From NCBI GenBank assembly GCA_021817785.1, contig JAKAFY010000002.1, forward strand, positions 11,750 to 75,749: a stretch of DNA of 64,000 nt. Direction: 5' to 3'. The notes below the pieces were generated by a model. It was not told the origin of the DNA. It worked only from the letters and a program-made list of their open reading frames with translations, and ran no database searches. Position 1 is the stretch's first letter, and every line of letters starts with the position of its first letter. Below, piece after piece: positions 12,628 to 53,400 of the stretch. This DNA is from a bacterium. GTDB taxonomy: Bacteria; Patescibacteriota; Microgenomatia; UBA10105; UBA927. The position numbers and the translations under genes were made by a program.

Positions 12628-14646
12628 ATGTCAGATCAATCCCACATTCGAAATTTCGCCATCATTGCCCACATAGATCATGGCAAGAGCACGCTTGCTG
12701 ATCGGTTGTTGGAGCTTACCCATACTGTCGCTCAGCGGGACATGCATGCCCAGCTTCTGGATAGCAACCCCATCGAGCAGGAGAGGGGGATTACCATCAA
12801 ATTAGCGCCGGTGCGGATGATGTATCAAGCGAAAAACGAAAATGGAAAAACGAAAAATGAACATACGCAACACATTTCAGATTTTCCATCGTACATTTTA
12901 AATTTAATTGATACTCCGGGACACGTAGACTTTGGGTATGAAGTCAGTAGGTCGTTGGCGGCCTGTGAAGGCGCGCTCCTCGTCGTCGATGCGACGCAGG
13001 GCGTACAGGCCCAGACATTGGCCAACCTGCATCAAGCCCGTCAGCACAATCTCACCATTATTCCTTTGATAAACAAAGTCGATATGCCGCATGCTCGGAT
13101 TGCAGAAACACGAGAGGAGCTTAGAAGCTTAGGTTTTAACGATGAAGAAATGATCGAAATATCGGCAAAAACCGGGGTAAACGTGGAGAAAGTGCTGGAA
13201 GCGGTTATCGAACGTATACCACCACCCCATGGAGATCCGGATGCGCCGCTTCGGGCGCTTATATTTTCGTCCCAATACGATACGCATAAAGGCGTCGTTA
13301 TATTTGTACGGGTAGTAGATGGTAGTATTCACTTTGATCCACTATTGAGACTGAGATTTATGGCATCAAAGAGTGACAACGCTCCTATAGAAGTTGGGTA
13401 CTTTTCCCCGCAGTGGGTGGCGACTACCGATTTGCATTGCGGCGAGGTAGGGTATATCGCCACGGGACTCAAAGATGTGAAGTTGGCAAAGGTCGGGGAT
13501 ACCGTAACGATACTCGAGCAACGAGCAGCGAGTAGAGAGAAAAGGGTGTCATCGACTCTCGATACTCGTTCCTCGATGCCCGTCCCGCTTACCGGGTACA
13601 AAGAGCCCAAGTCCATGGTGTTTTTGGGGCTGTTCCCGCTGGCTGCGGATGAATATCAGGAAACGCGGGAAGCGGTAGAAAAGCTTCAGCTATCAGACAG
13701 TGCGTTTTCGTTCCGGCCCATATCGTCGCTTGCTTTGGGCAACGGCTTCCACTGCGGATTTTTAGGACTCCTGCATGCAGAAGTGGCCCAGGAACGGATT
13801 TTGCGTGAATTTGGCCTCACCATGATCGCGACCAGTCCGAGTGTGGAATATCACCTAACCCTTCATCCCGGAGTTGATTATCATAAACTTGGTTTTACAC
13901 AATCATCTGTCATTGCGAGTGAAACGAAGCAATCTCATGATGATAACGAGATCGCCACGTCCCGCGATGGCGGGACTCGCGATGACATGGGGGTGACGGT
14001 TGCCATCCAGTCTGCGGAAGAGTATCCGGATCCTTCACAGGTGGCGTCCGTCAAGGAGCCGATTATGAGCGTGGATATTTACAGCCCGAAAAAGTATACC
14101 GGCGCCATCATGCAACTTTCCCAGGAAAAACGGGGGGTGTATATGGACTTGACGTACGTTGGAGACCAAGCGCACTTTGTATACCTTATTCCGCTTTCCG
14201 AAATGATCGTCGACTTCTTTGATCGGCTAAAGAGCGTGACCGAAGGGTACGCCAGTTTGGACTACGAATTTTTTGATTGGCAAGAGGTAGAAGTCGTTAA
14301 GGTCGATATATTGGTCAATAAAGAACAGGTCGATGCACTGTCATTTCTCATCACCCGCGATGCGGCACTACAGCGCAGTCGTGAGCTGGTGGAACGCTTG
14401 GCAGGAGTGATTCCTCGCCAGCAGTTTGAAATCCCCATACAGGCCACCATAGGCGGCCAGGTGATCGCACGATCGGACGTGAAAGCGTTTCGCAAAGACG
14501 TCACGCGCAAGCTCTATGGCGGTGACCGCACCCGGAAAGACAAACTCTTGGAAGCACAAAAGAAAGGCAAGGCGAAGATGAAAATGATCGGGAGAGTGGA
14601 GATACCACAGTCAGCGTTCTTTCAGGTGCTGAAGCGGACGAATTGA
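12628..14646 (+). CDS. lepA: elongation factor 4 (LepA) translational GTPase with three in-frame insertions
   Basis: IRNFAIIAHIDHGKSTLADRLLE G1 motif, DTPGHVDF, NKVD, and LepA-specific C-terminal domains. At 672 aa it is about 70 aa longer than typical LepA. Confidence 0.92.
   Translation: MSDQSHIRNFAIIAHIDHGKSTLADRLLELTHTVAQRDMHAQLLDSNPIEQERGITIKLAPVRMMYQAKNENGKTKNEHTQHISDFPSYILNLIDTPGHVDFGYEVSRSLAACEGALLVVDATQGVQAQTLANLHQARQHNLTIIPLINKVDMPHARIAETREELRSLGFNDEEMIEISAKTGVNVEKVLEAVIERIPPPHGDPDAPLRALIFSSQYDTHKGVVIFVRVVDGSIHFDPLLRLRFMASKSDNAPIEVGYFSPQWVATTDLHCGEVGYIATGLKDVKLAKVGDTVTILEQRAASREKRVSSTLDTRSSMPVPLTGYKEPKSMVFLGLFPLAADEYQETREAVEKLQLSDSAFSFRPISSLALGNGFHCGFLGLLHAEVAQERILREFGLTMIATSPSVEYHLTLHPGVDYHKLGFTQSSVIASETKQSHDDNEIATSRDGGTRDDMGVTVAIQSAEEYPDPSQVASVKEPIMSVDIYSPKKYTGAIMQLSQEKRGVYMDLTYVGDQAHFVYLIPLSEMIVDFFDRLKSVTEGYASLDYEFFDWQEVEVVKVDILVNKEQVDALSFLITRDAALQRSRELVERLAGVIPRQQFEIPIQATIGGQVIARSDVKAFRKDVTRKLYGGDRTRKDKLLEAQKKGKAKMKMIGRVEIPQSAFFQVLKRTN
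13510..13580. repeat. family-A in-frame repetitive element in lepA
   Basis: CTCGAGCAACGAGCAGCGAG...CTCTCGATACTCG encodes EQRAASREKRVSSTLDTRSS, about 17 aa longer than LepA orthologs at this loop. Confidence 0.6.
13909..13986. repeat. family-B palindromic element, 78-bp in-frame copy in lepA
   Basis: GTCATTGCGAG...CGAAGCAATCT...GTCCCGCgatgGCGGGAC...CGCGATGAC, with terminal inverted repeats. It shares the 5' 13-mer and the CGAAGCAATCT box with 32608-32699, and is exactly 26 codons long. Confidence 0.65.
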
Positions 14647-15384
14647 TTATTTTGCGACCAGTTTCCGTTTCGTCAGTTTTTCCACGCCGTGGATCAACAG
14701 CTTTGATAGCAAAAATAATGCGACGTTTAGCCCCACGATCCATCCGATATTCGTTGCCATCCCAGAAAGAAAAAGCTGCACATCGTAGGCTACGGTGTCG
14801 GTGAGGGAGACGCGGATGCCCACTATGTAGAGCGCTGTTGCGATAAGGGCCACGATGATGGCTACCGGCCAGAAGCCATCCATATCTTCCGGAGAAGAAA
14901 ACATGGTGTTGGAAACGGCAAAAAGAGCGTACCCGGCGATAATCAGTAGATACACGGAAATATTAGAAAATACCGTGCCGGCTGCGGCATCGAGCTGTGT
15001 TTGCTGCCATAAGCCGGGAAGAAAATACGAAAGAAGCCCCAGCGCACCCAGTCCCACAAATACCGGTGCTACCCCGATAATCGCTCTGCGAATAGGATCG
15101 GATTGGGCGATAGAAACACTCCCGGTGCGCACCTCCGTTTTTTCCAATCCTTCGGGTACTAACGTAAGACCGCTTGTTTTTACGCCCAATATTTCTGCGA
15201 CAAACAGATGGGCGAGTTCATGAATCACCGTTCCCGGGAAAAAAATCAGGGAAAGAAATCCGATGCTCACTTCCCGCGATTTGGTGAGCAAAAAAGCGGC
15301 GACATACAGATTTTGCGTCATCCGGCGGGAGAGTAACCAGAGAAGAAAGAGTTCGATAGCAAGAAGTATGATGAGAAATGCCAT
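14647..15384 (-). CDS. putative membrane zinc metallopeptidase (M50B/DUF3267-like)
   Basis: HELAHLF (HExxH) motif at the edge of a TM segment, and about 6 TM helices in 245 aa. The gene is convergent with and abuts the lepA stop. Confidence 0.5.
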   Translation of the reverse strand: MAFLIILLAIELFLLWLLSRRMTQNLYVAAFLLTKSREVSIGFLSLIFFPGTVIHELAHLFVAEILGVKTSGLTLVPEGLEKTEVRTGSVSIAQSDPIRRAIIGVAPVFVGLGALGLLSYFLPGLWQQTQLDAAAGTVFSNISVYLLIIAGYALFAVSNTMFSSPEDMDGFWPVAIIVALIATALYIVGIRVSLTDTVAYDVQLFLSGMATNIGWIVGLNVALFLLSKLLIHGVEKLTKRKLVAK

Positions 15385-15513
15385 GGTTGCGTTCGGTAGC
15401 CGTTATGGTGTCAATTTGTTACTTTGTCAAAAGTTGCGCCTTTTTCTGCAATATTTGTCCAAGAAAGCGTTGCTTTTGTCTGCGAACTATGAACTTTCTT
15501 TCTGTAAACTCGT

Positions 15514-16452
15514 TTAGTGTCCGCCACCCTCGTTTTGGCCGGTCATGAGCGGCATAAAGAACATCAGTACTAATGCCCCTTTCATAAATAACGGCATAAG
15601 GACATCCATAAATGCCACTTGTTCTTCTGGAGACATGTGTTGTATCCGGCCGAATATCTCATGTGCTTTGGAAAGATTTTCTGTCGTTGTTTCTATTCCG
15701 GCAAGTTGCAAAATATTTTCCGGGGTCGGATGAAGACCTGTGAACCCGTCTACGCCGGTCAATTCTTTCCAGACTGGTTGTGCAAGATCGGCGTTGGTTT
15801 GCAATAACTGTGCGATGGTGCTTCCGGCATCCCGTGAGCCGGATTTGATTTGGTGTATGACTTCGGCGGGTACTGCTTTATCTGGGTGTGCTTCATTATA
15901 TGTCGCAATAATCGGAAGCAAAGCACTTTGCTCCGGATCAGGTTCGGGAAGCTTAAGGTCGGTAATCTGTTTTTGCAACGCATCGAGCTTTATGACGGCG
16001 TCGGGCGGCATGTCTGCATTACTCATTTTACTGACCATACGAAGCGCATCGAGACGCATTTCATTTCCGAGCGGTGTATCAGCGGCCTGTGTCGCAAGGG
16101 CGGAGAGAACCAAACGCATATCACGTAATTCCAATAGCAGGGCATTAGTCTCTGTCAGTAGGTGATCAATAGCTTCTTTATTTGGCAGAGACTCTTTTGT
16201 CCGGGTTGTCACCTCGGTATTCGTGGATGCCGATGTTTCAGTCGAAGAAACGCTTTTTGCGGCCGCAGCGTTTTCTGATATTATCTCTGTGGCTTCTGCC
16301 ACCGGAACTCCTCTGGCGATTTGTTCAAGCGCGGTATGGGCTGCATGAGCGGGTTTTGACTCGAATGGTGGTGCTGCTTGTGGTTTTTCTTTTGCGGCAA
16401 CCTGCGGATGTGGGTGTTCCTTTGGCGGGGGAATGGGTGCAATCTCTGTCAT
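15514..16452 (-). CDS. hypothetical protein with a low-complexity N-terminus and hydrophobic C-terminal tail
   Basis: 312 aa with a Pro/Ala/Glu-rich N-terminus and a C-terminal FMDVLMPLFMKGALVLMFFMPLM tail-anchor-like segment. Confidence 0.4.
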   Translation of the reverse strand: MTEIAPIPPPKEHPHPQVAAKEKPQAAPPFESKPAHAAHTALEQIARGVPVAEATEIISENAAAAKSVSSTETSASTNTEVTTRTKESLPNKEAIDHLLTETNALLLELRDMRLVLSALATQAADTPLGNEMRLDALRMVSKMSNADMPPDAVIKLDALQKQITDLKLPEPDPEQSALLPIIATYNEAHPDKAVPAEVIHQIKSGSRDAGSTIAQLLQTNADLAQPVWKELTGVDGFTGLHPTPENILQLAGIETTTENLSKAHEIFGRIQHMSPEEQVAFMDVLMPLFMKGALVLMFFMPLMTGQNEGGGH

Positions 16453-16554
16453 AGATATAGTATAGGCAGATTTATCTGTAGGAAGTCAATGTTGCTGCTA
16501 CATGATGCTCATGGACACACAATAAACCACTATATCTGTTTATCATTTGCTAAT

Positions 16555-16580
16555 TTCCCCAATTGGTGAAATTGACAAAT
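16555..16580 (+). promoter_or_regulatory. palindromic operator-like motif copy 1 (TTCCCCAATTGGTGAAATTGACAAAT)
   Basis: Contains CCAATTGG and the CAATT-N5-AATTG inverted repeat plus a TTGACA -35-like hexamer. It lies 30 bp upstream of the PaaX-like gene. Confidence 0.45.
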
Positions 16581-16608: not shown

Positions 16609-17190
16609 ATGGCTAGGCGGGGGGCTAAAAAAGACATGAAGCAGCACGCGACGAAAGAAATTATATTAGAGTTGTTGCGTGAGGGCGGAACCCTTCTTAT
16701 CAGCGCGATAAAAGCAGGCCAGGAGCTTCGGCATCTTCGGGTACTTCGTGACCCGCTTCCGTCCTGGGAAGCGTATTATCCTTCGTCGGTCAATCGGCAA
16801 CTCAACCGTTTGTGGCGGAAAGGATATGTGGATATACGGGAAACGACTGAAGGATATGTTGTAACGATTTCTGATCGGGGGAAGACAGAAGTGCTTCGGT
16901 ATGACCTCAATACGATGGCAATTCCTGCTCAAACACAGTGGGATGGTAAATGGCGCATGGTGATATTTGATATTCCTGGGAGCGAAGAAACCGTACGGTC
17001 CGCATTTCGTAATCATTTAAAATCATTGGGATTTTACCAAATGCAAAAAAGTGTCTATGTCTATCCCTACCCTTGCGACGAGCAAATTCATTATCTGCGT
17101 GAGGTGTACAACATTCCGCATTCCGTTAAAATCGCGACGATTTCTGAGCTGGAAAACGATGAAGATTTGCGAAAAATCTTTCATTTATAA
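16609..17190 (+). CDS. PaaX-family transcriptional regulator
   Basis: N-terminal winged-helix region, and the C-terminal WDGKWRMVIFDIPGSEETVRSAFRNHLKSLGFYQMQKSVYVYP matches the PaaX_C signature W-G-W-x-V-x-F-x-P-E...LGFG. Confidence 0.7.
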   Translation: MARRGAKKDMKQHATKEIILELLREGGTLLISAIKAGQELRHLRVLRDPLPSWEAYYPSSVNRQLNRLWRKGYVDIRETTEGYVVTISDRGKTEVLRYDLNTMAIPAQTQWDGKWRMVIFDIPGSEETVRSAFRNHLKSLGFYQMQKSVYVYPYPCDEQIHYLREVYNIPHSVKIATISELENDEDLRKIFHL

Positions 17191-17192
17191 GT

Positions 17193-17235
17193 ATATATTT
17201 GTCAATTTTCCCAATTGGTGGATTTGACAAATATA
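17193..17235 (+). promoter_or_regulatory. palindromic operator-like motif copy 2 (ATATATTTGTCAAT-tttCCCAATTGGtgg-ATTTGACAAATAT)
   Basis: Near-perfect 13-bp inverted repeat flanking the CCAATTGG core. It lies between the paaX-like stop and the first gene of the paralog array. Confidence 0.5.
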
Positions 17236-17251
17236 TCCAAATACACAGCAT

Positions 17252-18298
17252 ATGAGTGAAATGGCATCACAGACACCGGGAGAGATAAGGAATAAAATAC
17301 CAGTAGGGGCAAAACCGCTGGAGCGGAGCGTTTTGATAGGTATGTGGGATGTAACCAAAAAAGCAGTGGAGAGTCAGAGCGCTCGTGCATGGAACGAACG
17401 GATTATCAAAACGATAAATGAAAAGATCATCCCGAAACGCACTCCAGAAGAACTTGCATTTATCGCCAAACATCACATGGCGATCGAACGAGCTGCGACA
17501 GTCTCGGGGATTATTATTTCCTCCGCGGAAATATATACAGTTTTTTTGCTTGCCGCTCTAGGGAAATTGCAAATTGACCGCATGAGGGCGGTTTCCCGCT
17601 ATCGAGAGGCATTACAGAAGCATTTTGCCGCAGACCCCGGATTTCAGGATATAAAGCGTGTATATGATGGTATCCATTCCGGTAAAAAAACCGTCGGCTT
17701 TTTCGCATTTGCTACGGCTATAAATACCTTGTTAAACCAGATTGAATCAGGACAACGGCAGCAAATCAATGCGATGCTGCGTACGCCAAAAAATATACAA
17801 GAGGCCGACATCGTGCTGGAACGGATCTATAAGTCAGCATTTTGTGAAGCGAAAAATATAGAACGCCGGGCGTTAGGTCAGCCGGCGTTACCTCTCGATA
17901 ACCCCCGGCTGGCAGAGGAAGCGAACGCATCCTATGGAGAATGGAGAAACATACAGTGGAGGGGGTTGGATGGTGTTCTGCACCAGATGCGCTTTCCCCG
18001 TGGCCGAAAACGGGGATTATATCAGGCGATGCAAGGGGTGGACAATCACGCAATACTTGCCCAGTACATACAAAGCATTATGCCTTTGACCGGCGATGAA
18101 GCCATGTTAGGTGGTCCGCCAATCGTCGTTGATGAATCTGTCGAACACGATGGAACAATAGTGCACCGGGAGAAAAAATATCATGGCCCTCCACAATCTC
18201 CTGTTGGGCTTCGCGAAGGGCGTGAATATCAACTAAACGCAAAAGGACGGATGAAGACACGAAGAAATGAACATGGTCAAAATGGGAATGTCTGGTGA
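17252..18298 (+). CDS. paralog-array protein 1 (conserved N-terminal module, variable C-terminus)
   Basis: N-terminal roughly 90 aa share a pattern with the four downstream genes (G...A.K......GK..L..Y..L....T.EEKK, then a hydrophobic helix AIGW/VSGI...). Confidence 0.55.
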   Translation: MSEMASQTPGEIRNKIPVGAKPLERSVLIGMWDVTKKAVESQSARAWNERIIKTINEKIIPKRTPEELAFIAKHHMAIERAATVSGIIISSAEIYTVFLLAALGKLQIDRMRAVSRYREALQKHFAADPGFQDIKRVYDGIHSGKKTVGFFAFATAINTLLNQIESGQRQQINAMLRTPKNIQEADIVLERIYKSAFCEAKNIERRALGQPALPLDNPRLAEEANASYGEWRNIQWRGLDGVLHQMRFPRGRKRGLYQAMQGVDNHAILAQYIQSIMPLTGDEAMLGGPPIVVDESVEHDGTIVHREKKYHGPPQSPVGLREGREYQLNAKGRMKTRRNEHGQNGNVW

Positions 18299-18322
18299 GT
18301 ATAATGAGATACGGAGGAATAT

Positions 18323-19906
18323 ATGGTTGAGGGTGCAGGAATACGAGAGTCATCGCTGATATCGCCTGAGCCGTCCAAAAAGACGGTACTCTATGGTATT
18401 GGACGGGCGGGGGAGGCAATCAATAAACAATTAGGGCCGAAAGCCTGGGAACAGCGGGTGGACAACGCCATAAGCACGTACATTATCCCTCATGTTTCTC
18501 CCGAGATGCGGGAGACGATAGAAACGTATAAGCCGGAAATAGCCAAATGGTCGGGCTGGGCGATTACCGGCGCCGAAGTGGCGGTAGTAGCTGCCGCAAC
18601 CTATGGTGGCATCCGGTTGGTGGTGAACAAACTTCATAAGCGGCACGTTCCCACTCCAAATTCTCCTGTTCCGGTTACCCCGGATTTGCATATTCGTTCT
18701 GATGCGAAGGAATGGTGGGAACGCATACGCATGGAGGGAGACATACCTGAAGATGATTCCGGTCTTGATTTGCTTAGAAAATTGAGTGCAAAAAAGCCCG
18801 CACCCCCGCCAGTATTTGTTGTAGGTCCGGACGAAGTTCCGTCATGGCTTCGTGAATTAGCAGGGGATCATGCGCCGGCCGGTGCCAAAGCAGATAATGT
18901 TCCTGATTGGGTGCAGGAAGTTATGCATCGCCGCACGTTACAGGGCGCTGATAAAGTGCCAGATTTTTTGAGAAAAATATCCGCACGCAACCATGTATCA
19001 CAAGCCAGCGAAGCGGCTGCGAGCGACATTGGTTCTCATACTTCACGATGGTGGCAAGACCGAGCTGCCGCAGGGTTGGATACGTCTGTATTGCACACCG
19101 TACGCAAAATACCCAAACCCAGGACCAGATCATCGCCTTCGTCCGTTCCGATCAAGGATTTGCCCGTTCATACCAGGATATATTTTGACAAGAAAAAGAT
19201 ACAGAACATTTTTGCACGGAGACGTTCTCGACGTATTCGGGATATTCAAAACCAGGTACGGCGGGTAAAAGAACGCCGTTTTTCGGACTTGGCGCACCCG
19301 ATCGACCCAATGGCTTCGGCCAATGCAGTCGTTCAGGTCTCCCCACGTGCGGAAGAATATCAACAGTTACTCAGACGAAAACGGGCTGAAACAGAACGAC
19401 TGTATATAGACGATATGCGCCTGCGGCAAGAGATGAGAGAAAATGCGAGGCTCCGGGCTCTCGAGAAGAAACGAGCAATACTGAAAGAAAAAATAGATGC
19501 AGTAAGAAAAAGAATGGGGGAACACCCTTATGCCGTCCAAATGGTAGCTCCGCGTATACAAGATGAGATTACGCGGGCAGCACAGTCCAAGGTACTTACT
19601 GCCAATCCGGTCCGGTCCGAGCAACAGGGATGGATTGCGGATCAGCTTCGGGAGGTGATGGAACGGATACATGAACCAAAGGTTCGCAGGCAGTTAGATC
19701 GGTTGCTCATAGCCCCGACAGATCTAACATCATCAGCAGAACGCGCTGAAGTCGGCCGTATCGTCACTGATTTATTTCAGGCAGTTCAGTCGGACAAAAC
19801 CCCCTCAATGCAGGCAACAGTTATTCAGCGGGGCAGTCAGTGGGTTTCGCTTGGTATGCCCGGGCTACATCATGTGATTGATTATTTCATCTCACATAGA
19901 AAATAA
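18323..19906 (+). CDS. paralog-array protein 2, with an Arg/Glu-rich coiled-coil C-terminus
   Basis: Conserved N-terminal module (KTVLYGIGRAGEAINKQ...SGWAITGAEVAVVAAATYG). The C-terminus has RRRSRRIRDIQNQVRRVKERR and long R/E-rich helices. Confidence 0.55.
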   Translation: MVEGAGIRESSLISPEPSKKTVLYGIGRAGEAINKQLGPKAWEQRVDNAISTYIIPHVSPEMRETIETYKPEIAKWSGWAITGAEVAVVAAATYGGIRLVVNKLHKRHVPTPNSPVPVTPDLHIRSDAKEWWERIRMEGDIPEDDSGLDLLRKLSAKKPAPPPVFVVGPDEVPSWLRELAGDHAPAGAKADNVPDWVQEVMHRRTLQGADKVPDFLRKISARNHVSQASEAAASDIGSHTSRWWQDRAAAGLDTSVLHTVRKIPKPRTRSSPSSVPIKDLPVHTRIYFDKKKIQNIFARRRSRRIRDIQNQVRRVKERRFSDLAHPIDPMASANAVVQVSPRAEEYQQLLRRKRAETERLYIDDMRLRQEMRENARLRALEKKRAILKEKIDAVRKRMGEHPYAVQMVAPRIQDEITRAAQSKVLTANPVRSEQQGWIADQLREVMERIHEPKVRRQLDRLLIAPTDLTSSAERAEVGRIVTDLFQAVQSDKTPSMQATVIQRGSQWVSLGMPGLHHVIDYFISHRK

Positions 19907-19907
19907 T

Positions 19908-20729
19908 ATGCCCGAACGAAAAAAAACAGTCAGTCATAATACACCGTTCGTTGAACGGATGTTTATCGGTGTCGCACGCGCACCCAAAGCCTGGTCGGAA
20001 TATCAGGGGAGAAAGGCACTTGATATCTATGATGCGCTCAAATTTACCAAATTAACCTCCGAAGAAACAAAAATAGCAGATAAAACCCGTGCGTTTATCA
20101 ACAAACACCAAAAAGCTATCGGCTGGACGGCAACCGCATTCGAGATCGCTGTGATAGCAAAGATAGCGGCAGCAGGATACGGGCGATTGCATAAAAATAG
20201 CGACCATATAGTACAGGACTCGCAACCCGCATTCCCAACAGACTATGTCGCTGATTTGGCACCGGAGAGGGCAACCATGAAAGACGTCGTATCCGTATTG
20301 GCGATGGGTATTGTTCCGAAAGATCAATCTGCGGCGATTCTCGAAGCGCATTTTGCTCAATTTGCCGCAAAAAACAGTATTCCCATTCATCTGAAAGCAG
20401 AGAACACGCAATTACTATTCTCCCTTATAGGGGACGCGATACTCGGATGGAGGGGAATAGCGCAGGAATTTTTCACGGCTGATTTTTACACGCTTTGCAC
20501 AGCGATCTTTCTGAGGATAGCGTCCACGGACAAGGAAGACTCAATAGACTTGATGCATCAGGCTACGTTTGTATTGGACGGAGCATTTCCACATGATCCC
20601 CCTCAGGACGATGGTCCGGTGCAGACGGGTGTTGATGTCTGGAAATCACTCCAATTTTTCGGCATGAAAGATATTGCGTATCATTTTATTTCGGTATTTA
20701 AACGGAACGCTCATGAAGGAACAGCATAA
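19908..20729 (+). CDS. paralog-array protein 3
   Basis: ATG immediately follows the upstream stop. N-terminus FVERMFIGVARAPKAW...TSEETKIADK...AIGWTATAFEIAVIAKIAAAGYG. Confidence 0.55.
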   Translation: MPERKKTVSHNTPFVERMFIGVARAPKAWSEYQGRKALDIYDALKFTKLTSEETKIADKTRAFINKHQKAIGWTATAFEIAVIAKIAAAGYGRLHKNSDHIVQDSQPAFPTDYVADLAPERATMKDVVSVLAMGIVPKDQSAAILEAHFAQFAAKNSIPIHLKAENTQLLFSLIGDAILGWRGIAQEFFTADFYTLCTAIFLRIASTDKEDSIDLMHQATFVLDGAFPHDPPQDDGPVQTGVDVWKSLQFFGMKDIAYHFISVFKRNAHEGTA

Positions 20730-21783
20730 ATCAGCGGATGCACCGCGCGTAAAACAGGTGTTTGTCGGGGTAGGAAATGCACTGAAACATATGACTCCCG
20801 AACATCAGGGAAAAGGCATATTGGCTCTGTACGACCATCTGTATTATTCTACGCTGACGGATGAAGAGAAAAAAGTGAAAGGCAAACTCCGGCCGATTAT
20901 AGAAAAGAATACCGCCGCCATCGGCTGGGCAGCAACGGGAGTAGAAGCAGCCACTCTCATCGCAATTGTTGCTATGGGTCTCAAGAAGTTTCGCTCAACG
21001 CGTGCTTCGGAAATGAATGCCGCAATAAAAGATGGAGTGATTCCCCAGCCAAAATTTATGCGTCCGGATGGAGAATTCCTTACGGAAGTCAGGCAGGGGC
21101 TTATGCGCACACATAATGAATTCAAATCAGAAGATATCGAGCTGATGTTGCATATGGCATTTGGCCAACGACCCACAGCAAAAGTAGCAGGAGCGATTGA
21201 TGAAGCCCTTCGGGAACGAAGCAGTCTGAACGATGCACACCTGGAAGGCGCATTCATAGAGCACGTCTATACTATATACAATAAACTGCCGATCCTTCGT
21301 AGGAGTATCGATAAGGATTTAGCGGTTCTCCATGAGGCAAATTTCCCCGGATTTGAACATATTATCATGGAACAGTGGAAATGTATGCCGGAGTCTCTTG
21401 CGACAACCGTTATCGATGCGCTCTCTAAGCATGTTGATTTGGCTGCGGCTAAACAACTTTGGGAGTTGCTGCATCCGTATCGAGAGGAGGCGTATACTTT
21501 TGAATCCTTTGCGAGTCCGCTTCACTGGAGTTCGATGTGGAACGGGCTTATATGGGGAGTGTTTGAGCGGTTTGTGCATATGCCAAGATCGGCAGAAGAA
21601 CGGAGCGCTTTGTTGAATCAGCCGGATATGTCGGAAGCGTGGTATACATTTTTTCAGTCATTCCGTATAGATGATCCGACGCATATAGCACAGCACATAC
21701 TCGACGACATATGTATAAAAGGGGCACGAGAGCTCGGGGACAGTTTTTTGAACAAATCCGTGTTGGAAAAACTGATAGGATGA
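20713..21783 (+). CDS. paralog-array protein 4
   Basis: 17-nt overlap with the upstream gene. N-terminus VKQVFVGVGNALKHMTPEHQGKGILALYDHLYYSTLTDEEKKVKGK...AIGWAATGVEAATLIAIVAMGL. Confidence 0.55.
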   Translation: MKEQHKSADAPRVKQVFVGVGNALKHMTPEHQGKGILALYDHLYYSTLTDEEKKVKGKLRPIIEKNTAAIGWAATGVEAATLIAIVAMGLKKFRSTRASEMNAAIKDGVIPQPKFMRPDGEFLTEVRQGLMRTHNEFKSEDIELMLHMAFGQRPTAKVAGAIDEALRERSSLNDAHLEGAFIEHVYTIYNKLPILRRSIDKDLAVLHEANFPGFEHIIMEQWKCMPESLATTVIDALSKHVDLAAAKQLWELLHPYREEAYTFESFASPLHWSSMWNGLIWGVFERFVHMPRSAEERSALLNQPDMSEAWYTFFQSFRIDDPTHIAQHILDDICIKGARELGDSFLNKSVLEKLIG

Positions 21784-21784
21784 T

Positions 21785-22648
21785 ATGCATATGCCGGAAG
21801 TGTCTCGGACAACCTACCATGCCAAAGATACGCTCAAACGCGTCCTGATAGGCTCATGGAATGCAGTCAAACCTGAGCACCAGGGGAAAAAAGTGCTGGA
21901 ATTTTATGAAAAACTTCGGTTCCCAAAATATACGGACGAAGAAAAGAAAGTCGCAGACAGAATATATCTTCTGCTGAAAACGCATTCGAACGCCGTGGGA
22001 GTCGGGGCAATCGTTGGAGAGACGGCGGTGGCAGCTGCAGTCGTGTGGGGATATACACGTTTAAAACATCATAAGAAGTCTCTGCTACGGTCACAAGAAG
22101 GGCAACCTGCAGAGAAAATAAGCGGAGAGGTACTCTCGGTTGATGATTATCTTCAGAATACATTGGTCCCTCGCGATACCGCCATAGGTATTGTTATGGA
22201 TGAAGGAGTTGAAACATGGGGGATAGAAAAAAGAATATTAGATATATTAGGATATCACGATGAAGATCGTGTTGGTGAGATGGCATTTCTGCTTGGCTGT
22301 GCTGCACGAGTGCTCGATCCGATGAAGCCAAACGAACTACAGTTGGGTGATATCGGCACCGTGCTTTTGGATCCGAAGAACTTCGAAAAAATGAATGAAC
22401 TAGCGAATCACACTCCTCTGGAAAGCGGATTTCAGGCATTTCCCGTGGATCCGCATGTGGTTATAGACCGTCTTCGGTTCCTGTTTCGGGATGCTCCGGG
22501 CGGGTCTGACCTCTTTACGTATTGGGGCAGAGTTTTGCGTTTTACCGGGCTCCACGCCCTTATTCCCGGAGGGACGACACGTACGGATGGCGGCGCGGGT
22601 GTCCATCGGGTCTTGACGTGGCTATATATGGCCATGTCCTCATCGTAG
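21785..22648 (+). CDS. paralog-array protein 5
   Basis: ATG lies 1 nt after the upstream stop. N-terminus LKRVLIGSWNAVKPEHQGKKVLEFYEKLRFPKYTDEEKKVADR...AVGVGAIVGETAVAAAVVWGY. Confidence 0.55.
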   Translation: MHMPEVSRTTYHAKDTLKRVLIGSWNAVKPEHQGKKVLEFYEKLRFPKYTDEEKKVADRIYLLLKTHSNAVGVGAIVGETAVAAAVVWGYTRLKHHKKSLLRSQEGQPAEKISGEVLSVDDYLQNTLVPRDTAIGIVMDEGVETWGIEKRILDILGYHDEDRVGEMAFLLGCAARVLDPMKPNELQLGDIGTVLLDPKNFEKMNELANHTPLESGFQAFPVDPHVVIDRLRFLFRDAPGGSDLFTYWGRVLRFTGLHALIPGGTTRTDGGAGVHRVLTWLYMAMSSS

Positions 22649-22746
22649 TGTATTTTTCTTATTGCATATGTTTCGATATTTCCTCATACTTATATTCTTG
22701 TAATGTACCGCACAATCTCATGCGCGAACGACTGACCGTTACTAGT

Positions 22747-23007
22747 ATGACAGAACAATCATCCCCAGCGCCAAGACACACGGATGAGGGTGCCTTGCGG
22801 CATCCCGGGGTCCCGGCGACGTCCATAGAAGAAGAAGCATTGCGCGCAAACGCGAAGGTCCAGGGTGTGGAAGGAAAAGAGAGTGAAGAAGTGTCTGCAA
22901 TAGAACCGGGAAATGCCCCTGCAAAACTCCCTGAGTCCGGGCCGGTAAAGATACTTAATGACCGCCGCCGCCCTATCGTAAACCACCACGGTAAACATTC
23001 GTTTTAG
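22747..23007 (+). CDS. small acidic hypothetical protein
   Basis: 86-aa Glu/Pro/Ala-rich ORF from the ATG at 22747 with no recognisable domain. Confidence 0.25.
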   Translation: MTEQSSPAPRHTDEGALRHPGVPATSIEEEALRANAKVQGVEGKESEEVSAIEPGNAPAKLPESGPVKILNDRRRPIVNHHGKHSF

Positions 23008-23056: not shown

Positions 23057-23368
23057 ATGATCCTTCTTTATCATGAAGAAGTGAGATTATTTATCCGGAC
23101 TTTGGAAAAGTCCACACAATCGAAAACGCTACGTGGATTAGATCTTCTTGAAAAATATGGTATGAGTGTCGGATTGCCTCATGTGAAGAAAGTCACGAGG
23201 ATGCTTTATGAATTACGCATTCGAGGTGTTCAGGAAATACGAATATTTTTCGTATCCCAACAATCTAGAATTGTATTACTGCACGGATTTATCAAAAAAT
23301 CTCAAAAAATTCCTCAAAAAGAGATTCGAGTTGCGCAAAAGCGATGGGAGATGTTGACAAGAATATAA
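23057..23368 (+). CDS. type II toxin, HigB/RelE-like (Gp49/DUF891 family)
   Basis: LYELRIRGVQEIRIFFVSQQSRIVLLHGFIKKSQKIPQKEIRVAQKRWE matches the Gp49-like toxin signature. It is followed 23 bp later by an XRE-family HTH gene. Confidence 0.75.
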   Translation: MILLYHEEVRLFIRTLEKSTQSKTLRGLDLLEKYGMSVGLPHVKKVTRMLYELRIRGVQEIRIFFVSQQSRIVLLHGFIKKSQKIPQKEIRVAQKRWEMLTRI

Positions 23369-23391
23369 CATATATGTGATACTATGAACCT

Positions 23392-23679
23392 ATGAATATA
23401 AATGATCTTAAATCATTTTCTCAATTAAAAAAAGAATTACTCGCAGATCCAGAAGTTAAACGAGCATATGATGCCTTGGAGCCGGAGTTTGCACTCATCC
23501 GTTCGGTCATAGAAAAACGATTGGCAAAAAAGATGTCCCAAAAGGATTTGGCAGATAAAATGGGGACCAAACAATCGGCTATTTCTCGATTGGAATCTGG
23601 GACGGCAAATCCGTCTATGAAGTTTCTCCAAAAAGTCGCAACCGCCCTTGATGCGCGCCTCACCGTGGCTATTCAATAA
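23392..23679 (+). CDS. HTH XRE-family antitoxin (HigA-like)
   Basis: MSQKDLADKMGTKQSAISRLESGTANPSMKFLQKVATAL is a classic Cro/C1-type HTH. It is 95 aa and lies directly downstream of the toxin. Confidence 0.8.
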   Translation: MNINDLKSFSQLKKELLADPEVKRAYDALEPEFALIRSVIEKRLAKKMSQKDLADKMGTKQSAISRLESGTANPSMKFLQKVATALDARLTVAIQ

Positions 23680-23691
23680 GAGAATTAGCAC

Positions 23692-24894
23692 TCAATGATG
23701 TTTGATTGCTAGTGTTAGCAGTCGATAGTATCCAGTGACAATTTGGTGCCAATCAAAGTGATGGACAAGATGTTTTTGGAGCACTTTGGCAATCTTTTTC
23801 CGTTTTTCCGTATGGGTAAGTGCCCATAAAAGTGCTGCCCGTATGGCATGGTCATCTCCTGCAGGAATGAGTTTGCCGGTTTTATTGGGTACTATGACTT
23901 CCCGTACGCCCGCTACGTCGGTTGCTATGACGTATGCGCCGCTTGCACCCGCTTCCAGGATAACGTTGGGGAATCCTTCGTTATGATGGGAAGGGTGTAC
24001 AAATATGTCCGAAGCTTGGAGCGTATCGCGGACACCTTTGGTGTTTAGTGGACCCAGGAAAACGACACGGTTTTCCAGATTGTCCTGCCGAATCTGTTTT
24101 TTTATGGAGTCGGATAACGGACCATCACCTGCTATGGCGAAATAGACATTGCGTTTGAGTTTTGGGAACAACTGCCGAAATATTTTGTATATTTTAAGCG
24201 CCCCTTTGGCCCAGATGAGGCGACCGACAAAAGTGATAAAGATGTCTGTAGGCTTTACCTTGCGGCGTATGCCTGGTATACGACGTTTATTTCGCGCGAT
24301 AGGAGAAAAGTATGCAGTATCCACGCCGCCGTATACGAGCCGGATATTTTGTTTGAATGTATATGTGCGATTGAGAAACAATTGGGCAGATTTATTGGTT
24401 GCTGTGACAAGATCATAGCGGGGGAGGCTCCATGCAGCAAGGGTGTGGTCGACGAGGTTGGCTATGGCCTCTACTGTTTGATTTTCGTGTACCGGACGAC
24501 CCGCTACGTGTTCTGTGAATATACTTTTGGCTCCGATTATTTTGGCATACAGCCACGTCCACCAGGCCGAGTCGAAAAACCGCAGGTGGGTATGGACAAA
24601 CGTATAGTTATTGTGAGCCAGTTTGGATAATACCATGCAGAGTGCAATAGGATTTGGAAGAGCAAACTGGTCAGGGAGTATCTGCCAGCCGGGTATTCGG
24701 TATATCGTAAGACCGCGATAGGTTTCTACCGCGGGAGCATTGTCGGTGTTATAGCACACCACATCCACGGAGATGTGTTTATACGTTTCCATAAGGTGGA
24801 CGTAGAGCTCTTCCATATACCGCTGACTCCCCCCGATATGGGGGTAGAAGTACGGAGAGATAAGGAGGATATGTAATTGTGTTTTGCGTTTCAT
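23692..24894 (-). CDS. GT4-family glycosyltransferase
   Basis: N-terminal GGSQRY donor/acceptor fold, and the C-terminal EGFPNVILEAGASGAYVIATDVAGVREVI matches the GT4 E-x7-E motif region. Confidence 0.85.
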   Translation of the reverse strand: MKRKTQLHILLISPYFYPHIGGSQRYMEELYVHLMETYKHISVDVVCYNTDNAPAVETYRGLTIYRIPGWQILPDQFALPNPIALCMVLSKLAHNNYTFVHTHLRFFDSAWWTWLYAKIIGAKSIFTEHVAGRPVHENQTVEAIANLVDHTLAAWSLPRYDLVTATNKSAQLFLNRTYTFKQNIRLVYGGVDTAYFSPIARNKRRIPGIRRKVKPTDIFITFVGRLIWAKGALKIYKIFRQLFPKLKRNVYFAIAGDGPLSDSIKKQIRQDNLENRVVFLGPLNTKGVRDTLQASDIFVHPSHHNEGFPNVILEAGASGAYVIATDVAGVREVIVPNKTGKLIPAGDDHAIRAALLWALTHTEKRKKIAKVLQKHLVHHFDWHQIVTGYYRLLTLAIKHH

Positions 24895-37290: not shown

Positions 37291-38196
37291 TCAGATAGAC
37301 AAGGTCGAGTCTTGCACCAAATCTGCAAATATAAGAAGTCGCTCTGTCGTAGAACCCGGAGGCCAGCAGGTCTGGAGGATAAGATTTTTGGTGCCTGCGT
37401 GGGGGACGAGGTAAGAAACAGCCTCGGGAGAGACAATCTTTTTTTCGGTGATTTTGTATGTGTACTGGCGGCCTTTGTATATGATAGCTATCTGGTCTCC
37501 CGTGTCCAGGTTTTTGACCAGGTAAAAGACGGCGTTTAGGTCTTTTACAAACCAGTCGTAGCTTGTGGAATGGGAAAAAAGGTACACCGTGCCGTTTTCG
37601 TCCGGAAAGTAGCTTGTGGAGGCGTGTGCGACCCCTTCGGTGAGCGCTTTTTCGTATTCGCCCGGGTTTGCAGGATTGACGGCTGGGATAACCTTGGCAT
37701 TCACCCCGATTTTGGGGATGATGAGGCCAAAGTTGGTGTCCACCGGCACGATTGCGGAGCCGTCCGGATTGGTAAGCGGGGTAAAAAGCACGGTTTTGGC
37801 GTTCGTGGCCACGGGTTTGGGTGCGGGCTTTATGCGGTCGGCAAGGGAGCGCGAAAGCGTAGAGAACGCAGGCACCATACGCTTCGTGGCGCGGGAACCG
37901 TATTGAAGCGTCTCTATAGCAAGGATATCTGCCCGTTTTGCGGCTGTATTGATGATTGTACGAGCCTGCATGCTACGGTACCCAGCCTCTAACCGGATAA
38001 ACGGCGTAAGCGGGCCGGTAAGGCCGCCTAAAGCCAGCGCAATGAGGCCAAGGCCGAGTATTTTGCCAAGATCGGACTGTTTTTTTTGCGTTACTGTCGA
38101 CTGTGAACCGTGAACTACGGACTTTTTATAGTCCCAGTCGTGATAGTAGATGATGCCGGAGGAGCGCATAGAGTTAACAAAGTGACAAATTGACAA
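37291..38196 (-). CDS. sortase family transpeptidase
   Basis: N-terminal TM anchor, conserved His region (YLFSHS), catalytic TLxTC-like LILQTCWP, and RLLIFA (Arg). It lies about 700 bp from the LPVAG substrate gene. Confidence 0.75.
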   Translation of the reverse strand: MSICHFVNSMRSSGIIYYHDWDYKKSVVHGSQSTVTQKKQSDLGKILGLGLIALALGGLTGPLTPFIRLEAGYRSMQARTIINTAAKRADILAIETLQYGSRATKRMVPAFSTLSRSLADRIKPAPKPVATNAKTVLFTPLTNPDGSAIVPVDTNFGLIIPKIGVNAKVIPAVNPANPGEYEKALTEGVAHASTSYFPDENGTVYLFSHSTSYDWFVKDLNAVFYLVKNLDTGDQIAIIYKGRQYTYKITEKKIVSPEAVSYLVPHAGTKNLILQTCWPPGSTTERLLIFADLVQDSTLSI

Positions 38197-38649: not shown

Positions 38650-39231
38650 TTATTTACGTATACGCGGTGATGCCGCTATTGGGTGCGGCGATACATACAG
38701 CGATTTTTCAAACCGAACCATGGGAGTACCCGCTATGGTCACCCGGCCGGTTTCTTCAAAGCCTACGCCGGTAAATAACCGGATACTTTTTTCGTTATTG
38801 GGTTTGATCATAGCCCGGACAGACGTAAGGTGCACGGTGTTTTTTGCATACTCCAAGACTTGTTGTATGGTCTGCTTGCCTACGCCTTTACTCTGATATT
38901 CTTTTTCGCCGATGACGATGCCGATTTCTCCGGTATTTTGCGGTTGTTGATCTTGGCGCAAACTGACCAGTCCGATCGTTTTCCCCCCGGCTGTGATGTC
39001 AAAATAATGCCGAAGCGGGTCGGTGGTGGCGTAGTATATCCAGTTATCAATATCCTGCGGCATGCTGGGGAGGTCATCATACATCCATGTGCGTATATCA
39101 GGATCATTCATCCATTTCATCCAGTTGGTAAACGTTTGGTGCGAATCCGTGGTTTTTTTCAGCGTCACAGTCGGTTGGGATGGGATTTCTTTGTGCGTTG
39201 CTGGGATAGGTCGTTCGGCGATGGCGTTCAT
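38650..39231 (-). CDS. GNAT family N-acetyltransferase
   Basis: Acetyl-CoA binding motif region GIVIGEKEYQSKGVGKQTIQQVLEYAK (Q/R-x-x-G-x-G/A). Confidence 0.75.
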   Translation of the reverse strand: MNAIAERPIPATHKEIPSQPTVTLKKTTDSHQTFTNWMKWMNDPDIRTWMYDDLPSMPQDIDNWIYYATTDPLRHYFDITAGGKTIGLVSLRQDQQPQNTGEIGIVIGEKEYQSKGVGKQTIQQVLEYAKNTVHLTSVRAMIKPNNEKSIRLFTGVGFEETGRVTIAGTPMVRFEKSLYVSPHPIAASPRIRK

Positions 39232-39291: not shown

Positions 39292-39333
39292 GATATTTGT
39301 CAATTTCACCAATTGGGAAATATAACAAATATA
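39292..39333 (-). promoter_or_regulatory. palindromic operator-like motif copy 3 (reverse orientation), upstream of the GNAT gene
   Basis: ATATTTGTCAATttcaCCAATTGGgaaATATAACAAATAT is the reverse complement of the 16555/17207 motif. It lies about 65 bp upstream of the GNAT start. Confidence 0.45.
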
Positions 39334-40060: not shown

Positions 40061-43000
40061 TTATTTCGTCTGTTTGGCAAACCGTACCTCGATTTTTTCA
40101 CCAACGACATCTATACGGTCCGCTTTCCAGGTACGACTGATTTTTTTATCCAGATGCTGGAGGACAATGTCATTAAAATTATTGAGCTGATGATGGATGG
40201 TGCCCGAAACCACTTTCATAAGAATCGGCAAGTCCATATGCAAAGAGTTCGGTTCTACGACGAGTCCCTTTTGCGGGTCGGTAATCAGCGTTCCGCTAAA
40301 TGCAGCCTCTCCGAATATGGGCGATTTTGCTTTCATATCAACAAGCTTTGCGGTATTTCCGTCCAGCGTGATTTTTCCCTCAGTAATACGCGTGTTTCCT
40401 GCCATATGGAGTGAAGACTTAAGATAATCCATAAGTTCGCCGGTCGTGACATCCATAACCGCGCTCGTCTGTTCTTTTGACCGGTCCAGGATATAATGCA
40501 TACGGTCCTCAACGCCTTCCGGAAGCATTTCCCGTGACGGCGCCGGCATAGCAACTTCCGGCGTTCCCTGGTTTTGGGTCGATGTAACGTCAGGAGAGGA
40601 AATGGAAGACGCCATGGTTTCCGCCTTCGCTGAAGCTTCGGCGGACAAGTCCGCTGGTCCCTCCGTCGCGGAAGCTTCTGAGGATGAGCCCGCAACATTT
40701 TCCAGTGCTTCTCGGGCAGTTGCCGGTTCCGGTTTCGTGGCCTCAACTACTTCGCTGGCTGCCTGTTTGGCAAACGCTTCCGTGTCTATTTCTGCACCCA
40801 TATTTGCCGATAAGCTGGTCATATCGGTTATCAGGACTTTGTCGTCTTTGACTTCGTATTGTATGCCTAACGCATCCATCGTGCGTTTAAAGTATCCGTC
40901 AAAACGGGCGGGGTTGGCTGCTTTAAGGGACGGATACAGTGTGGCATACATATTCGACAGGTTTGCTTCGAGTTGTTCTTTGGTATAGGATTCCGTGGCT
41001 TTTTGGGCCATATCGGACCATGACATATCTTTGTACGTATCATTCTTTTCAAGCGGGACCTGTTCGGCAAGTCCCATTGGCTGCAAATATTGGTAATAGA
41101 TGGTTTCCTTGGGGTCGATCGTTGTCCGCATTTCGGGAATGATTTGTATACCATCTCCAGAGCCGCGGGCCGACCTCATCATCCAGGAAAGTTCACGGTC
41201 CTCGGCTCCCGGGGAGTCCGCATGATAGCCGCCGACCGCCGCAAGAGAGCCTGCGCGGATAGCCATGTTGCCGCTATAGACATTCGGAATGCTTCCGGTA
41301 TCTCCATGGCGGACAAACGCGTCAAAGAGCTCAAATGCGCGGTGGCTTGCAAATAACATGGGATACTGGGTAAATGCTTCTGCGGGTAATTCATTTGCAC
41401 CACTTATGATATCAACAGTGGGATTGGCATCAGCGGCATCGATAAGGCCTGCGACATACGTGGGTTGTACCGTCATACCCGGCACGGTGTTGTCTGTCAA
41501 AAGCAGTACGTCCGGGTGATCGGCAGGAAGCGTACCTAACCGCGACAGGACGTAGTTCGAAAGATCCCGTTTGATGCGCCCGCTCTTCAGATCTCCGTCA
41601 TAGGTGTGGGAAAGATAGACGACATGTGCGTCCGGGTGCTCGGTCATGAACGTATCAACGTCTGTTTTTACCGTGCTTTCCGCTGCGGGATTGATGTCAT
41701 AGACGATGAGCTCTACCTTTTTAAGATCCAGAGGCGCGCCGTCTTTGGTAGTTTGATTTGTATACTGAGCCAGCCGTTGTCCGATACCGGTCCCCGCCGA
41801 AGACGTGGGGAAGGTGATAACGGTTCGCACATCTGGTGCGATCGGCGCATCATGCTGGGCGACCAGACCGGAAAGTATATTCGTATCCTCCTGCGGGAGC
41901 TGGCTTAGATACCATGCGATTTCCTCCGATTGGGAAAGTTTTGCCTGCGGATTTTCCGTAAGCCGCGGAGATTTCCGGCTATCCATGGTTTCTTTGGAAA
42001 TAAACGCGCCTTCGTTGCCCAGCGGGAAATAAAATGTTTCGGCAGACGGCGCTACTTCCGAAGGAAGTGCTTCCATGGGCGCGGCTTCCAATACGGATCG
42101 CACCGGAAGAATAACCGGGAACCAGGGGATTTCCCCGGCGACTGCGGTGGCAGTGTGTGTGGCTGCCGTGTTGAATTCACTGAATACCTGTCCGATATGA
42201 CGCGTTGCGAAATCTTCCGTTGACCGGCCGACAGACGACCCTGCTGCTGCCACATAGTCACGCGCGGCCATATCGCGCACCCCACGGTCGAGCATGTCCC
42301 CGGCATGTATAGCTTGCGTGGCTGCTGCATCATGAGCTTGTACGGTTTGTGCCGCCACAGCGTCATGTACCTGCGTCATTTCGCTGGGAAGCGTGTAGGG
42401 AATTTTGATCGTATTTCCGATAACAGGTCCGATGTGAGCCACTTCAGCAGTGGGATAGGACGGAGTAATGCTTATAAGATTGTGTGTAGCAGTCGGGGCT
42501 TCAACAACGGGTGCTCCAACGACCGGTGTGGTATGAGGTGCCGTGCCGCTTAAACGCGCCATAAATGAGGTAAGATCCGTCGGGTTCGGTAATTGATTAT
42601 CCTGTCCTACGTACCCGAGTTTCAACGCGATTGCTTCATACCGCGACTCTCCGCCTTTGTCATAAAGGTGTTGTATGGCATCAAGCGGACCCGCCGACTT
42701 TGCGAGTTCCTTCTGATAATCAATAAGCGCTTGGTGTTGAATTTTGGCAAATTCTTTTATGCCATCTGGTCCGAATACCTTCGGATCTACGTGAATTGTT
42801 GCATCGTTGGGAATTCTGGAAAGGTCCATTTCACTCGTTGGCCCTATACCGCCATGTGTAGCATCGCCAAATGTTGCATGGCGGAAGTTTTCCGGATGTT
42901 TTATTGCATCAAAAAAGTTGGCATGAGGTGAATCGTTGGGAATATCAATAACTTTGTCCATGTGATCGTGGGCATACATACGGAACATATTTTTAAAGGC

Positions 43001-53362: not shown

Positions 53363-53400
53363 TATTTGTATTTTTTCCCAATTGGTGGATTTGGCAAATG
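53363..53400 (+). promoter_or_regulatory. palindromic operator-like motif copy 4 (TTTTCCCAATTGGTGGATTTGGCAAAT)
   Basis: Same CCCAATTGGTGGATTTG core as the copy at 17207. It lies between two minus-strand genes. Confidence 0.4.

Follow-up and report, generated by a model that had tools for sequence, protein, structure and literature searches.

A five-gene array in Candidatus Gottesmanbacteria encodes members of an apparently undescribed protein family with a shared N-terminal module

Several described bacterial systems use sets of paralogs that share an N-terminal part and differ in the rest. The PE and PPE proteins of mycobacteria are lineage restricted and form two related subtypes encoded side by side. 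They combine a conserved helical N-terminal domain of ~100 amino acids (aa) with highly variable C-termini and include many paralogs without an enzymatic signature. Polymorphic toxins of the LXG, Rhs, and CdiA-CT types have a constant N-terminus, divergent C-termini, and a tandem arrangement. Paralogous anti-sigma factors with variable sensors, such as the RsgI set of Clostridium thermocellum, have a conserved N-terminal domain of ~50 to 90 residues, one hydrophobic helix, and variable C-terminal regions, with several paralogs per genome. In minor pilin and pseudopilin operons, the encoded paralogs have in common a hydrophobic helix with a conserved Glu, through which they assemble. Here, we describe an array of five genes (g1 to g5) that resembles each of these systems in the features named. 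It lies at positions 17252 to 22648 of a 64,000-nucleotide (nt) stretch of contig JAKAFY010000002.1 (assembly GCA_021817785.1), the whole of which is called the window below.

The array also differs from each of them. There is no sequence or fold match between the family and the PE and PPE proteins and no type VII secretion gene at the array. No WXG/YxxxD-type secretion motif was noticed, although no search aimed at one was made. The PE and PPE domains lack the 21-residue uncharged, Glu-bearing helix of the array family. Unlike polymorphic toxin loci, the array has no known trafficking domain, toxin domain, or immunity genes, and no between-sample polymorphism was seen. Unlike the RsgI set, it has no partner sigma factor and no RsgI_N, zf-HC2, or RskA domain, and it forms one operon rather than sigma/anti-sigma pairs. 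Compared with minor pilins, its helix is internal and follows a conserved folded domain, its motif spacing does not fit, and its context lacks a prepilin peptidase.

The five genes are encoded on the plus strand, head to tail, with gaps of 24, 1, -17, and 1 nt. A first-pass annotation of the sequence had reported this layout, and the open reading frame (ORF) list of the window matches it. Independent public contigs with identical DNA carry gene calls that concur on g1 to g5 and add a 95-aa gene at 22720 to 23007. By profile comparison, all five proteins share a homologous N-terminal module of about 85 to 90 aa. The first-pass annotation had proposed a related ~90-aa region in all five. Pairwise tests of that similarity gave a divided result. 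The N-termini of g3, g4, and g5 matched one another by BLASTP with E values of 3e-9 to 3e-15. Those of g1 and g2 matched each other only, and weakly (E values of 0.1 to 1), but they were rescued by profile searches. A g3-to-g5 profile run against the 441 ORFs of the window ranked g1 fourth (E value, 0.005) and g2 fifth (E value, 0.086). An iterated profile was built from g3 to g5 and their relatives from other genomes, with g1 and g2 taken out of the database. It still detected g1 (E value, 6.6e-18) and g2 (E value, 2.4e-13), so all five have the homologous module. The best unrelated ORF among about 5,900 had an E value of 0.13. The module contains nearly invariant Gly, Pro, and Gly residues and a Glu within a hydrophobic helix.

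No library searched describes the family, and probably none describes the gene cluster. A profile of the five modules was run with HMMER, exhaustively, over 1.84 billion cluster representatives at an E value of 0.001 or below. It returned 93 proteins, one of them a false positive, which left 92 real clusters. The family proteins are 80 to 1033 aa long, and in each the module begins no later than residue ~90. The sources that name them call them "hypothetical proteins." Across the 93 proteins, no Pfam domain recurred or passed its cutoff, with weak matches up to an E value of 5 pooled. Proteins g1 to g5 had no match better than an E value of 0.02 in Pfam-A, NCBIfam, PHROGs, or PADLOC. Among PDB sequences, nothing matched a profile of the module or one of the full family, and no solved structure resembled the proteins in fold. 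The first-pass annotation had recognized no known family, and these libraries agree. Nothing suggests an enzyme. As far as the evidence goes, the family occurs only in Candidatus Gottesmanbacteria (Microgenomates, candidate phyla radiation [CPR]).

Module sequences divide the proteins into two subtypes, which appear to be old. A-type modules (g1 and g2) carry the signature "..AW..RII..I..IIPKLSPEQ..". B-type modules (g3 to g5) carry the signature "..PE.QGK...YD.L.FPKLT.EE.K..". Viral contigs scanned with the A-type and B-type module alignments contained no relatives. A metagenome scan with a narrow A-type alignment gave four loci only.

The A-type gene g1 (17252 to 18298, plus strand) encodes 348 aa, or 345 aa from an alternative start at 17261. 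Its module spans residues ~19 to 109, and the hydrophobic Glu-bearing helix spans residues ~81 to 104. The C-terminal part contains a conserved helical domain, g1C (residues ~129 to 276), and a basic disordered tail (residues 277 to 348). Gene g2 (18323 to 19906, plus strand) encodes 527 aa, with the module at residues 15 to 99. Its long C-terminal region, g2C, contains repeated short VPxW/FLR-like motifs and a conserved C-terminal sub-domain that ends in WVSLGMPGLHHVIDYFIS. The first-pass annotation had described one C-terminus as an Arg/Glu-rich coiled coil. A charged segment with a heptad-like stretch (residues 374 to 408) is present in g2, but the charged part covers only about 50 residues (351 to 400). 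The 40-residue window at 351 to 390 is 57% charged.

The B-type gene g3 (19908 to 20729, plus strand) encodes 273 aa from ATG, with the module at residues 10 to 95 and an orphan C-terminal region of 170 aa. Gene g4 (20713 to 21783, plus strand) encodes 356 aa from ATG, with the module at residues 8 to 94. Its C-terminal 254 aa are orphan and are predicted, with low confidence, to be all helical. Gene g5 (21785 to 22648, plus strand) encodes 287 aa, with the module at residues ~12 to 95. Four relatives of the g5 C-terminal domain were found, namely, three cluster representatives and one locus ORF, and all of them carry the same N-terminal module.

We mapped 17 related loci in which the family is present. 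The conserved cluster in relatives begins with mem245 and p312, which are divergent from the A-type gene. The A-type gene is followed by p184 and the HExxH protein p377, then by B-type genes, a small protein, and mem952. In related LepA neighborhoods, the backbone is LepA, then mem245 and p312 (both on the minus strand), with the A-type gene divergent from p312. Downstream of the A-type gene there is usually p184 (184 aa) and then one or two copies of p377 (~377 aa). One to three B-type genes sometimes come next, followed by a small ORF and a membrane protein of ~950 aa. In the window, the ~950-aa membrane protein adjoins a GT4 glycosyltransferase. The order g1-like, g2-like, and B-type also occurs in two other loci (L062 and L063). 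A third, L061, is a short contig that has a g1-like gene and then a g2-like gene, where it ends. In L009/L064, in L047, and in several database proteins, a single long A-type protein contains the module, the g1 C-terminal domain, and the C-terminal part of the g2 region. This fusion suggests joint action of g1 and g2. When the modules are compared, each of g3, g4, and g5 groups with proteins of other genomes and not with the other two, so the duplications look old. The array does not appear to be a recent variable expansion.

The context of the array is chromosomal and housekeeping. The window's LepA (12628 to 14646) is 66 to 78% identical to the LepA of about 30 of the fetched loci. The window is otherwise ordinary chromosome that encodes ArgRS, Kup, Nramp, a sortase, an M16 peptidase, two adenylate kinases, and Maf. 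The LepA itself is 672 aa long, and related LepA proteins align over about 610 to 626 residues; this difference corresponds to roughly 45 extra residues in low-complexity insertions. The two adenylate-kinase-like genes are in tandem (50665 to 51297 and 51307 to 51948). A 2098-aa ORF without a Pfam domain (40061 to 46357, minus strand) lies near the sortase gene (37291 to 38196, minus strand) and may encode a giant surface protein.

The C-terminal regions behave differently in the two subtypes. The first-pass annotation had called the five C-termini mutually unrelated. Pairwise BLAST among g1 to g5 found no match, and hhalign found no link among g3, g4, and g5. The statement does not extend to g1 and g2, whose C-terminal regions are fused in relatives, or to g2 and g3, which share a weak terminal motif. 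When the C-termini of 110 family members were compared, the A-type regions formed a single connected group of 43. The B-type regions formed more than 30 groups, with 24 singletons that include g3 and g4. Profile-profile comparison of the B groups gave a few weak links (53 to 60% probability), and g3, g4, and g5 were linked to none. When g3, g4, and g5 were used as queries in word-indexed searches of 5.8 billion proteins, each found only itself, and no free-standing or otherwise fused g3-to-g5 C-terminus was found at word-search sensitivity. Among g1 to g5, the A-type regions are net basic (R+K 14 to 18% versus D+E 11 to 13%), and the B-type regions are net acidic (R+K 7 to 10% versus D+E 13 to 15%).

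A terminal motif, W-x(2-9)-[PAFT]-G-[LIVM]-x-x-[LIVMFY], occurs in the last ~40 residues of both subtypes. It is present in g2, g3, g5, and many relatives. Examples are "GYPGLEELGIRLK", the g2 end "WVSLGMPGLHHVIDYFIS", and the g3 end "WKSLQFFGMKDIAYHFIS". The motif-bearing tails are encoded at about 19838 to 19906 in g2 and at about 20640 to 20729 in g3. Within their last 40 residues, 33% of members have the core [PAFT]-G-[LIVM]-x-x-[LIVMFY], versus 4 to 4.5% of controls; with the upstream Trp, the figures are 27% and about 2%. The pattern was defined post hoc from the same data. The motif shared by the g2 and g3 tails is marginal (shuffle p, about 0.02) and is the sole marginal pair in the window. 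A hidden Markov model of the "GYPGLEELGIRLK" tail did not extend past 15 members. A looser pattern was 8-fold enriched, but its definition was also post hoc.

Six contigs from other samples are 100% identical to the window across the part of the array that they cover, and all may come from one population. C-terminal swapping between strains, which the first-pass annotation proposed to look for, is thus not seen among them. Between species, the B-type C-termini are wholly different. The apparent pattern is a conserved module joined to family-private C-terminal regions that are stable in the A type and very fast evolving in the B type. The C-terminal diversity does not look like cassette exchange from a general domain pool.

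Predicted structures place the hydrophobic segment within a long helix. An AlphaFold2 (AF2) model of g1 was built from a 92-sequence alignment and had a mean predicted local distance difference test score (pLDDT) of 72.5, with 75 to 95 over residues 30 to 260. It contains short helices at residues 26 to 41, 44 to 62, and 65 to 73, followed by a 53-residue helix at 75 to 127 that carries the hydrophobic stretch. The rest is modeled as a helical domain (129 to 276) and a disordered basic tail (277 to 348). In the g4 model, the module (pLDDT 81 to 91) likewise forms three short helices and then a long one, and the C-terminal region has a pLDDT of 40 to 69. The hydrophobic stretch makes up the first ~21 residues of the long helix and consists of uncharged Ala, Gly, Val, and Thr. 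Across the family, the uncharged run has a median length of 21 residues, with a single nearly invariant Glu at its center. A Gly 7 residues before the Glu is also nearly invariant, and a Gly about 11 residues after it is common. The first 60 to 80 residues of the proteins are charged and helical. They contain no N-terminal hydrophobic segment and no lipobox Cys.

The helices of g1 to g5 have KD19 values of 1.43 to 1.80, with a family mean of 1.54, and simple Hessa sums of +2.7 to +5.5. In the window, KD19 is 1.80 for the single anchor of the sortase, to which the helices are comparable, 1.98 for the C-terminal segment of p312, and 1.5 to 2.8 for polytopic membrane proteins. The maxima in soluble proteins are 1.33 for LepA and ArgRS and 1.84 for the M16 peptidase. 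The segment thus resembles a weak membrane helix, and we regard membrane association as likely. The first-pass annotation had proposed a hydrophobic, probably membrane-anchoring helix. The helix is real as an uncharged run, but its hydrophobicity makes anchoring only borderline.

The array is flanked by membrane protein genes that are conserved in relatives. Upstream, mem245 (14647 to 15384, minus strand) encodes a polytopic membrane protein with six hydrophobic peaks and with HELAH and NTMFSSPEDMDG motifs. These resemble two motifs of site-2 proteases, and the Pfam M50 match has an E value of only 0.26. Its position beside LepA is kept in every related locus, whether or not the family is there. 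The next gene, p312 (15514 to 16452, minus strand), encodes a protein with a Pro/Lys-rich N-terminus, a conserved helical domain, and a C-terminal hydrophobic segment that ends in GGG-H. Of the 12 related loci that reach beyond the A-type gene on its upstream side, 11 have p312 together with the family. We considered an intramembrane salt bridge between the invariant Glu of the module and a Lys in the C-terminal helix of p312. It was rejected, since the Lys is present in this genome only and is not conserved.

Downstream, the operon is closed by p95 (22720 to 23007, plus strand), which encodes a small acidic protein of 95 aa. The nearest relative, L007, has its orthologue at the same position. 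In most relatives, the last gene of the operon is a small ORF that ends in "RTLRWPIHSNTPRITF", the same tail as that of p377 ("GKRPLHSNTxRITF"). The p95 protein and its L007 orthologue have a variant ending, "..RRRP..HHGK.SF". The small ORFs lie at 21281 to 21514 in L009, 17300 to 17611 in L010, 17773 to 18093 in L011, 14460 to 14741 in L012, 19964 to 20248 in L018, and 18910 to 19215 in L033. The p377 gene, found outside the window in L009 (18966 to 20105) and as orthologues, is paired with p184. It encodes ~377 aa with an invariant HELGH..E. It had no Pfam match, and a PDB profile search found nothing. It may represent a new metallopeptidase family. A HigB/HigA-type pair follows p95 in the window (23057 to 23679). 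It consists of a Gp49/HigB-like gene (PF05973; E value, 7.7e-21) and then an HTH_3 gene (PF01381; E value, 1.3e-15), and it was not seen in any related locus examined. Beyond it lies the GT4 gene (23692 to 24894, minus strand). Compared with the window, L005, the one divergent contig from another sample, has 56 substitutions, all within ~280 nt of the 3' part of this gene (23758 to 24040), and the other 3.9 kb are identical. Recombination could have produced this tract, or the contig could be chimeric through misassembly.

A regulator gene of 193 aa (16609 to 17190, plus strand) lies directly upstream of g1. It matched the PaaX_M/Cas2-like family above the cutoff (PF20803; E value, 1.5e-21), and winged-helix models matched weakly (E values of 0.004 to 0.03). 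Its score against TIGR02277 was 33 bits against a cutoff of 265, so it counts as a short PaaX-like protein rather than a PaaX equivalog. The first-pass annotation had placed a regulator upstream of the array and a toxin-antitoxin pair downstream, and both are borne out by these family matches. A 36-nt operator-like palindrome, ATTTGyyAAtTTtCCCAATTGGTGrAwTTGACAAAT, with a CCCAATTGG core and TTGACAAAT arms, occurs upstream of both the regulator gene and g1. The copy before the regulator gene (16545 to 16580) overlaps a TTGACA hexamer. The copy before g1 (17197 to 17232; ATTTGTCAATTTTCCCAATTGGTGGATTTGACAAAT) ends 20 nt before the start codon. Two more copies are found in the window, one on the minus strand at 39295 to 39319, upstream of a GNAT acetyltransferase gene (38650 to 39231, minus strand), and one at an intergenic site near 53.4 kb (53375 to 53399). 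Four copies compare with 0 expected by chance. In L007, the palindrome is found before the PaaX-like gene and before the A-type gene (14719 to 14743 and 15410 to 15445). Among the fetched relatives, a PaaX-like gene was found only in L007. The palindrome was found in no other fetched locus, and the other loci that were mapped gene by gene lack the PaaX-like gene. The placement of the palindrome before both genes, here and in L007, supports probable control of the operon by the neighboring PaaX-like regulator in these two genomes. The palindrome copies may mark a small regulon. A scan for consensus promoters and terminators found 15 sites versus 12 expected and was uninformative.

We tentatively favor, as the most likely reading, that g1 to g5 are membrane-associated subunits that assemble together. 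The proteins would act together and not as alternatives. The grounds for this are the old subtypes in a fixed order, the fusion of g1 and g2 in relatives, the tight translational coupling, and the conserved membrane-protein neighbors. The shared module would be the assembly and anchoring part that tethers the proteins at or in the cytoplasmic membrane. It would mediate the association of the paralogs, either with each other or through a common partner, for which p312 is the best candidate. The helical regions after the module would carry the subtype-specific function. The very fast evolution of the B-type C-termini suggests that they contact something that itself changes quickly, which may be the envelope, a host, or a phage. 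In a more specific and doubtful form of this reading, the five proteins and p312, with p184 and p377 in relatives, would make up an undescribed membrane apparatus specific to Gottesmanbacteria. It would assemble through the Glu-bearing helix, with the hypervariable B-type regions as its working end toward a partner that changes fast, for example, a host cell surface or a phage.

Several observations weigh against co-assembly at the membrane. The hydrophobicity of the helix is borderline for a membrane span by both KD19 and the Hessa sums. In 74% of members, the flank on the C-terminal side of the helix carries more positive charge than that on the N-terminal side (+3.4 versus +1.7 net), and the A-type proteins end in very basic Arg/Lys-rich tails. 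The N-terminal part is long and charged and lacks a signal peptide. By the charge rules, these features do not favor a simple single-pass topology with the N-terminus in and the C-terminus out. The p312 gene occurs without the family in L008, L010, L022, and L032, and p184 and p377, which are kept in most relatives, are missing from the window. No structural or sequence analogue that gives a functional handle was found in the searches made.

In the main rival reading, the proteins would be a soluble cytoplasmic scaffold or regulatory set, with the Ala/Gly-rich Glu-bearing helix as the buried core of an oligomeric bundle or coiled coil. We consider this unlikely. The KD19 values of g2 and g3 (1.43 to 1.45) are just above those of soluble LepA and ArgRS and below that of the M16 peptidase, both helix flanks are positive, the A-type tails are very basic, and AF2 places the segment inside one continuous helix of 40 to 53 residues. 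However, it would be unusual for a soluble helix to keep, across ~100 diverged sequences, a 21-residue run with one Glu as its sole polar residue, and the conserved neighbors are membrane proteins. In another reading, the proteins are bitopic, anti-sigma-like signal proteins cut by regulated intramembrane proteolysis. The variable outer domain would sense a cue, the small-residue-rich helix would be cleaved by mem245 (or, in relatives, p377), and the N-terminal module would be released into the cytoplasm. The architecture of conserved N-terminal domain, small-residue helix, and variable C-terminal region fits this scheme, mem245 with its HELAH and NxxxxxPxDxDG motifs is always nearby, and p377 has its invariant HELGH..E. 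We nevertheless find it quite unlikely. No sigma factor or anti-sigma domain is present in any locus mapped, the M50 match of mem245 is poor, mem245 is also present beside a large membrane protein in more distant loci (L013, L035, and L059) that lack p312 and the family, and the charge bias is contrary to an outer C-terminus.

The first-pass annotation had compared the array with polymorphic effector or immunity families and with variable surface proteins. A polymorphic effector or toxin array, or an anti-phage sensor array, would join a constant delivery or pore-forming module to variable domains. The constant N-terminus, the hypervariable orphan C-termini of the B type, and the adjacent Cas2-like regulator and HigBA pair recall such systems. 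Against this, the 93 proteins contain no toxin, enzyme, or other Pfam domain, the g1 C-terminal domain and the g4 C-terminal region are predicted to be all helical, and there is no PADLOC match. The five genes abut and each begins with the module, which leaves no room for interleaved immunity genes. The subtype order is conserved across species in a housekeeping locus, the array is identical in six other samples where covered, no copies were found on viral contigs, and the HigBA pair was not seen in the related loci examined. We regard this explanation as very unlikely, and the effector or immunity resemblance was not sustained. The likeness to variable surface proteins is not supported either, as the proteins lack a signal peptide and a lipobox and no variation between samples was seen. 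Type IV pilin-like or pseudopilin subunits with an unusually long leader would account for tandem paralogs with an invariant Glu in a hydrophobic helix and variable C-terminal parts. Here, though, the helix starts at residue 67 to 85, after a conserved helical domain of 70 residues, the Gly is 7 and not 5 residues before the Glu, and the apolar stretch after the Glu amounts to only about 11 residues. No neighboring protein scanned matched a pilus assembly family. We rejected this extremely improbable reading because neither the spacing nor the position of the motif fits a pilin.

Lineage-specific families are common in CPR genomes, which encode many lineage-specific proteins, and the basis of the envelope biology and presumed host dependence of the CPR is largely unknown. 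The novelty of the present family lies in having no detectable relation to a described family and is not a demonstration of new biology. If its members form no membrane assembly, it is simply a new domain family. In either case, five "hypothetical proteins" become a testable unit with ~92 clusters, two subtypes, a module, partners, and a candidate regulator with its operator. If co-assembling subunits at the membrane with a fast-evolving exposed part are the correct reading, the proteins would be candidates for the contact of Gottesmanbacteria with a host or phage. Should the more specific apparatus exist, a CPR lineage would possess a novel type of machine for its envelope or for contact with a host.

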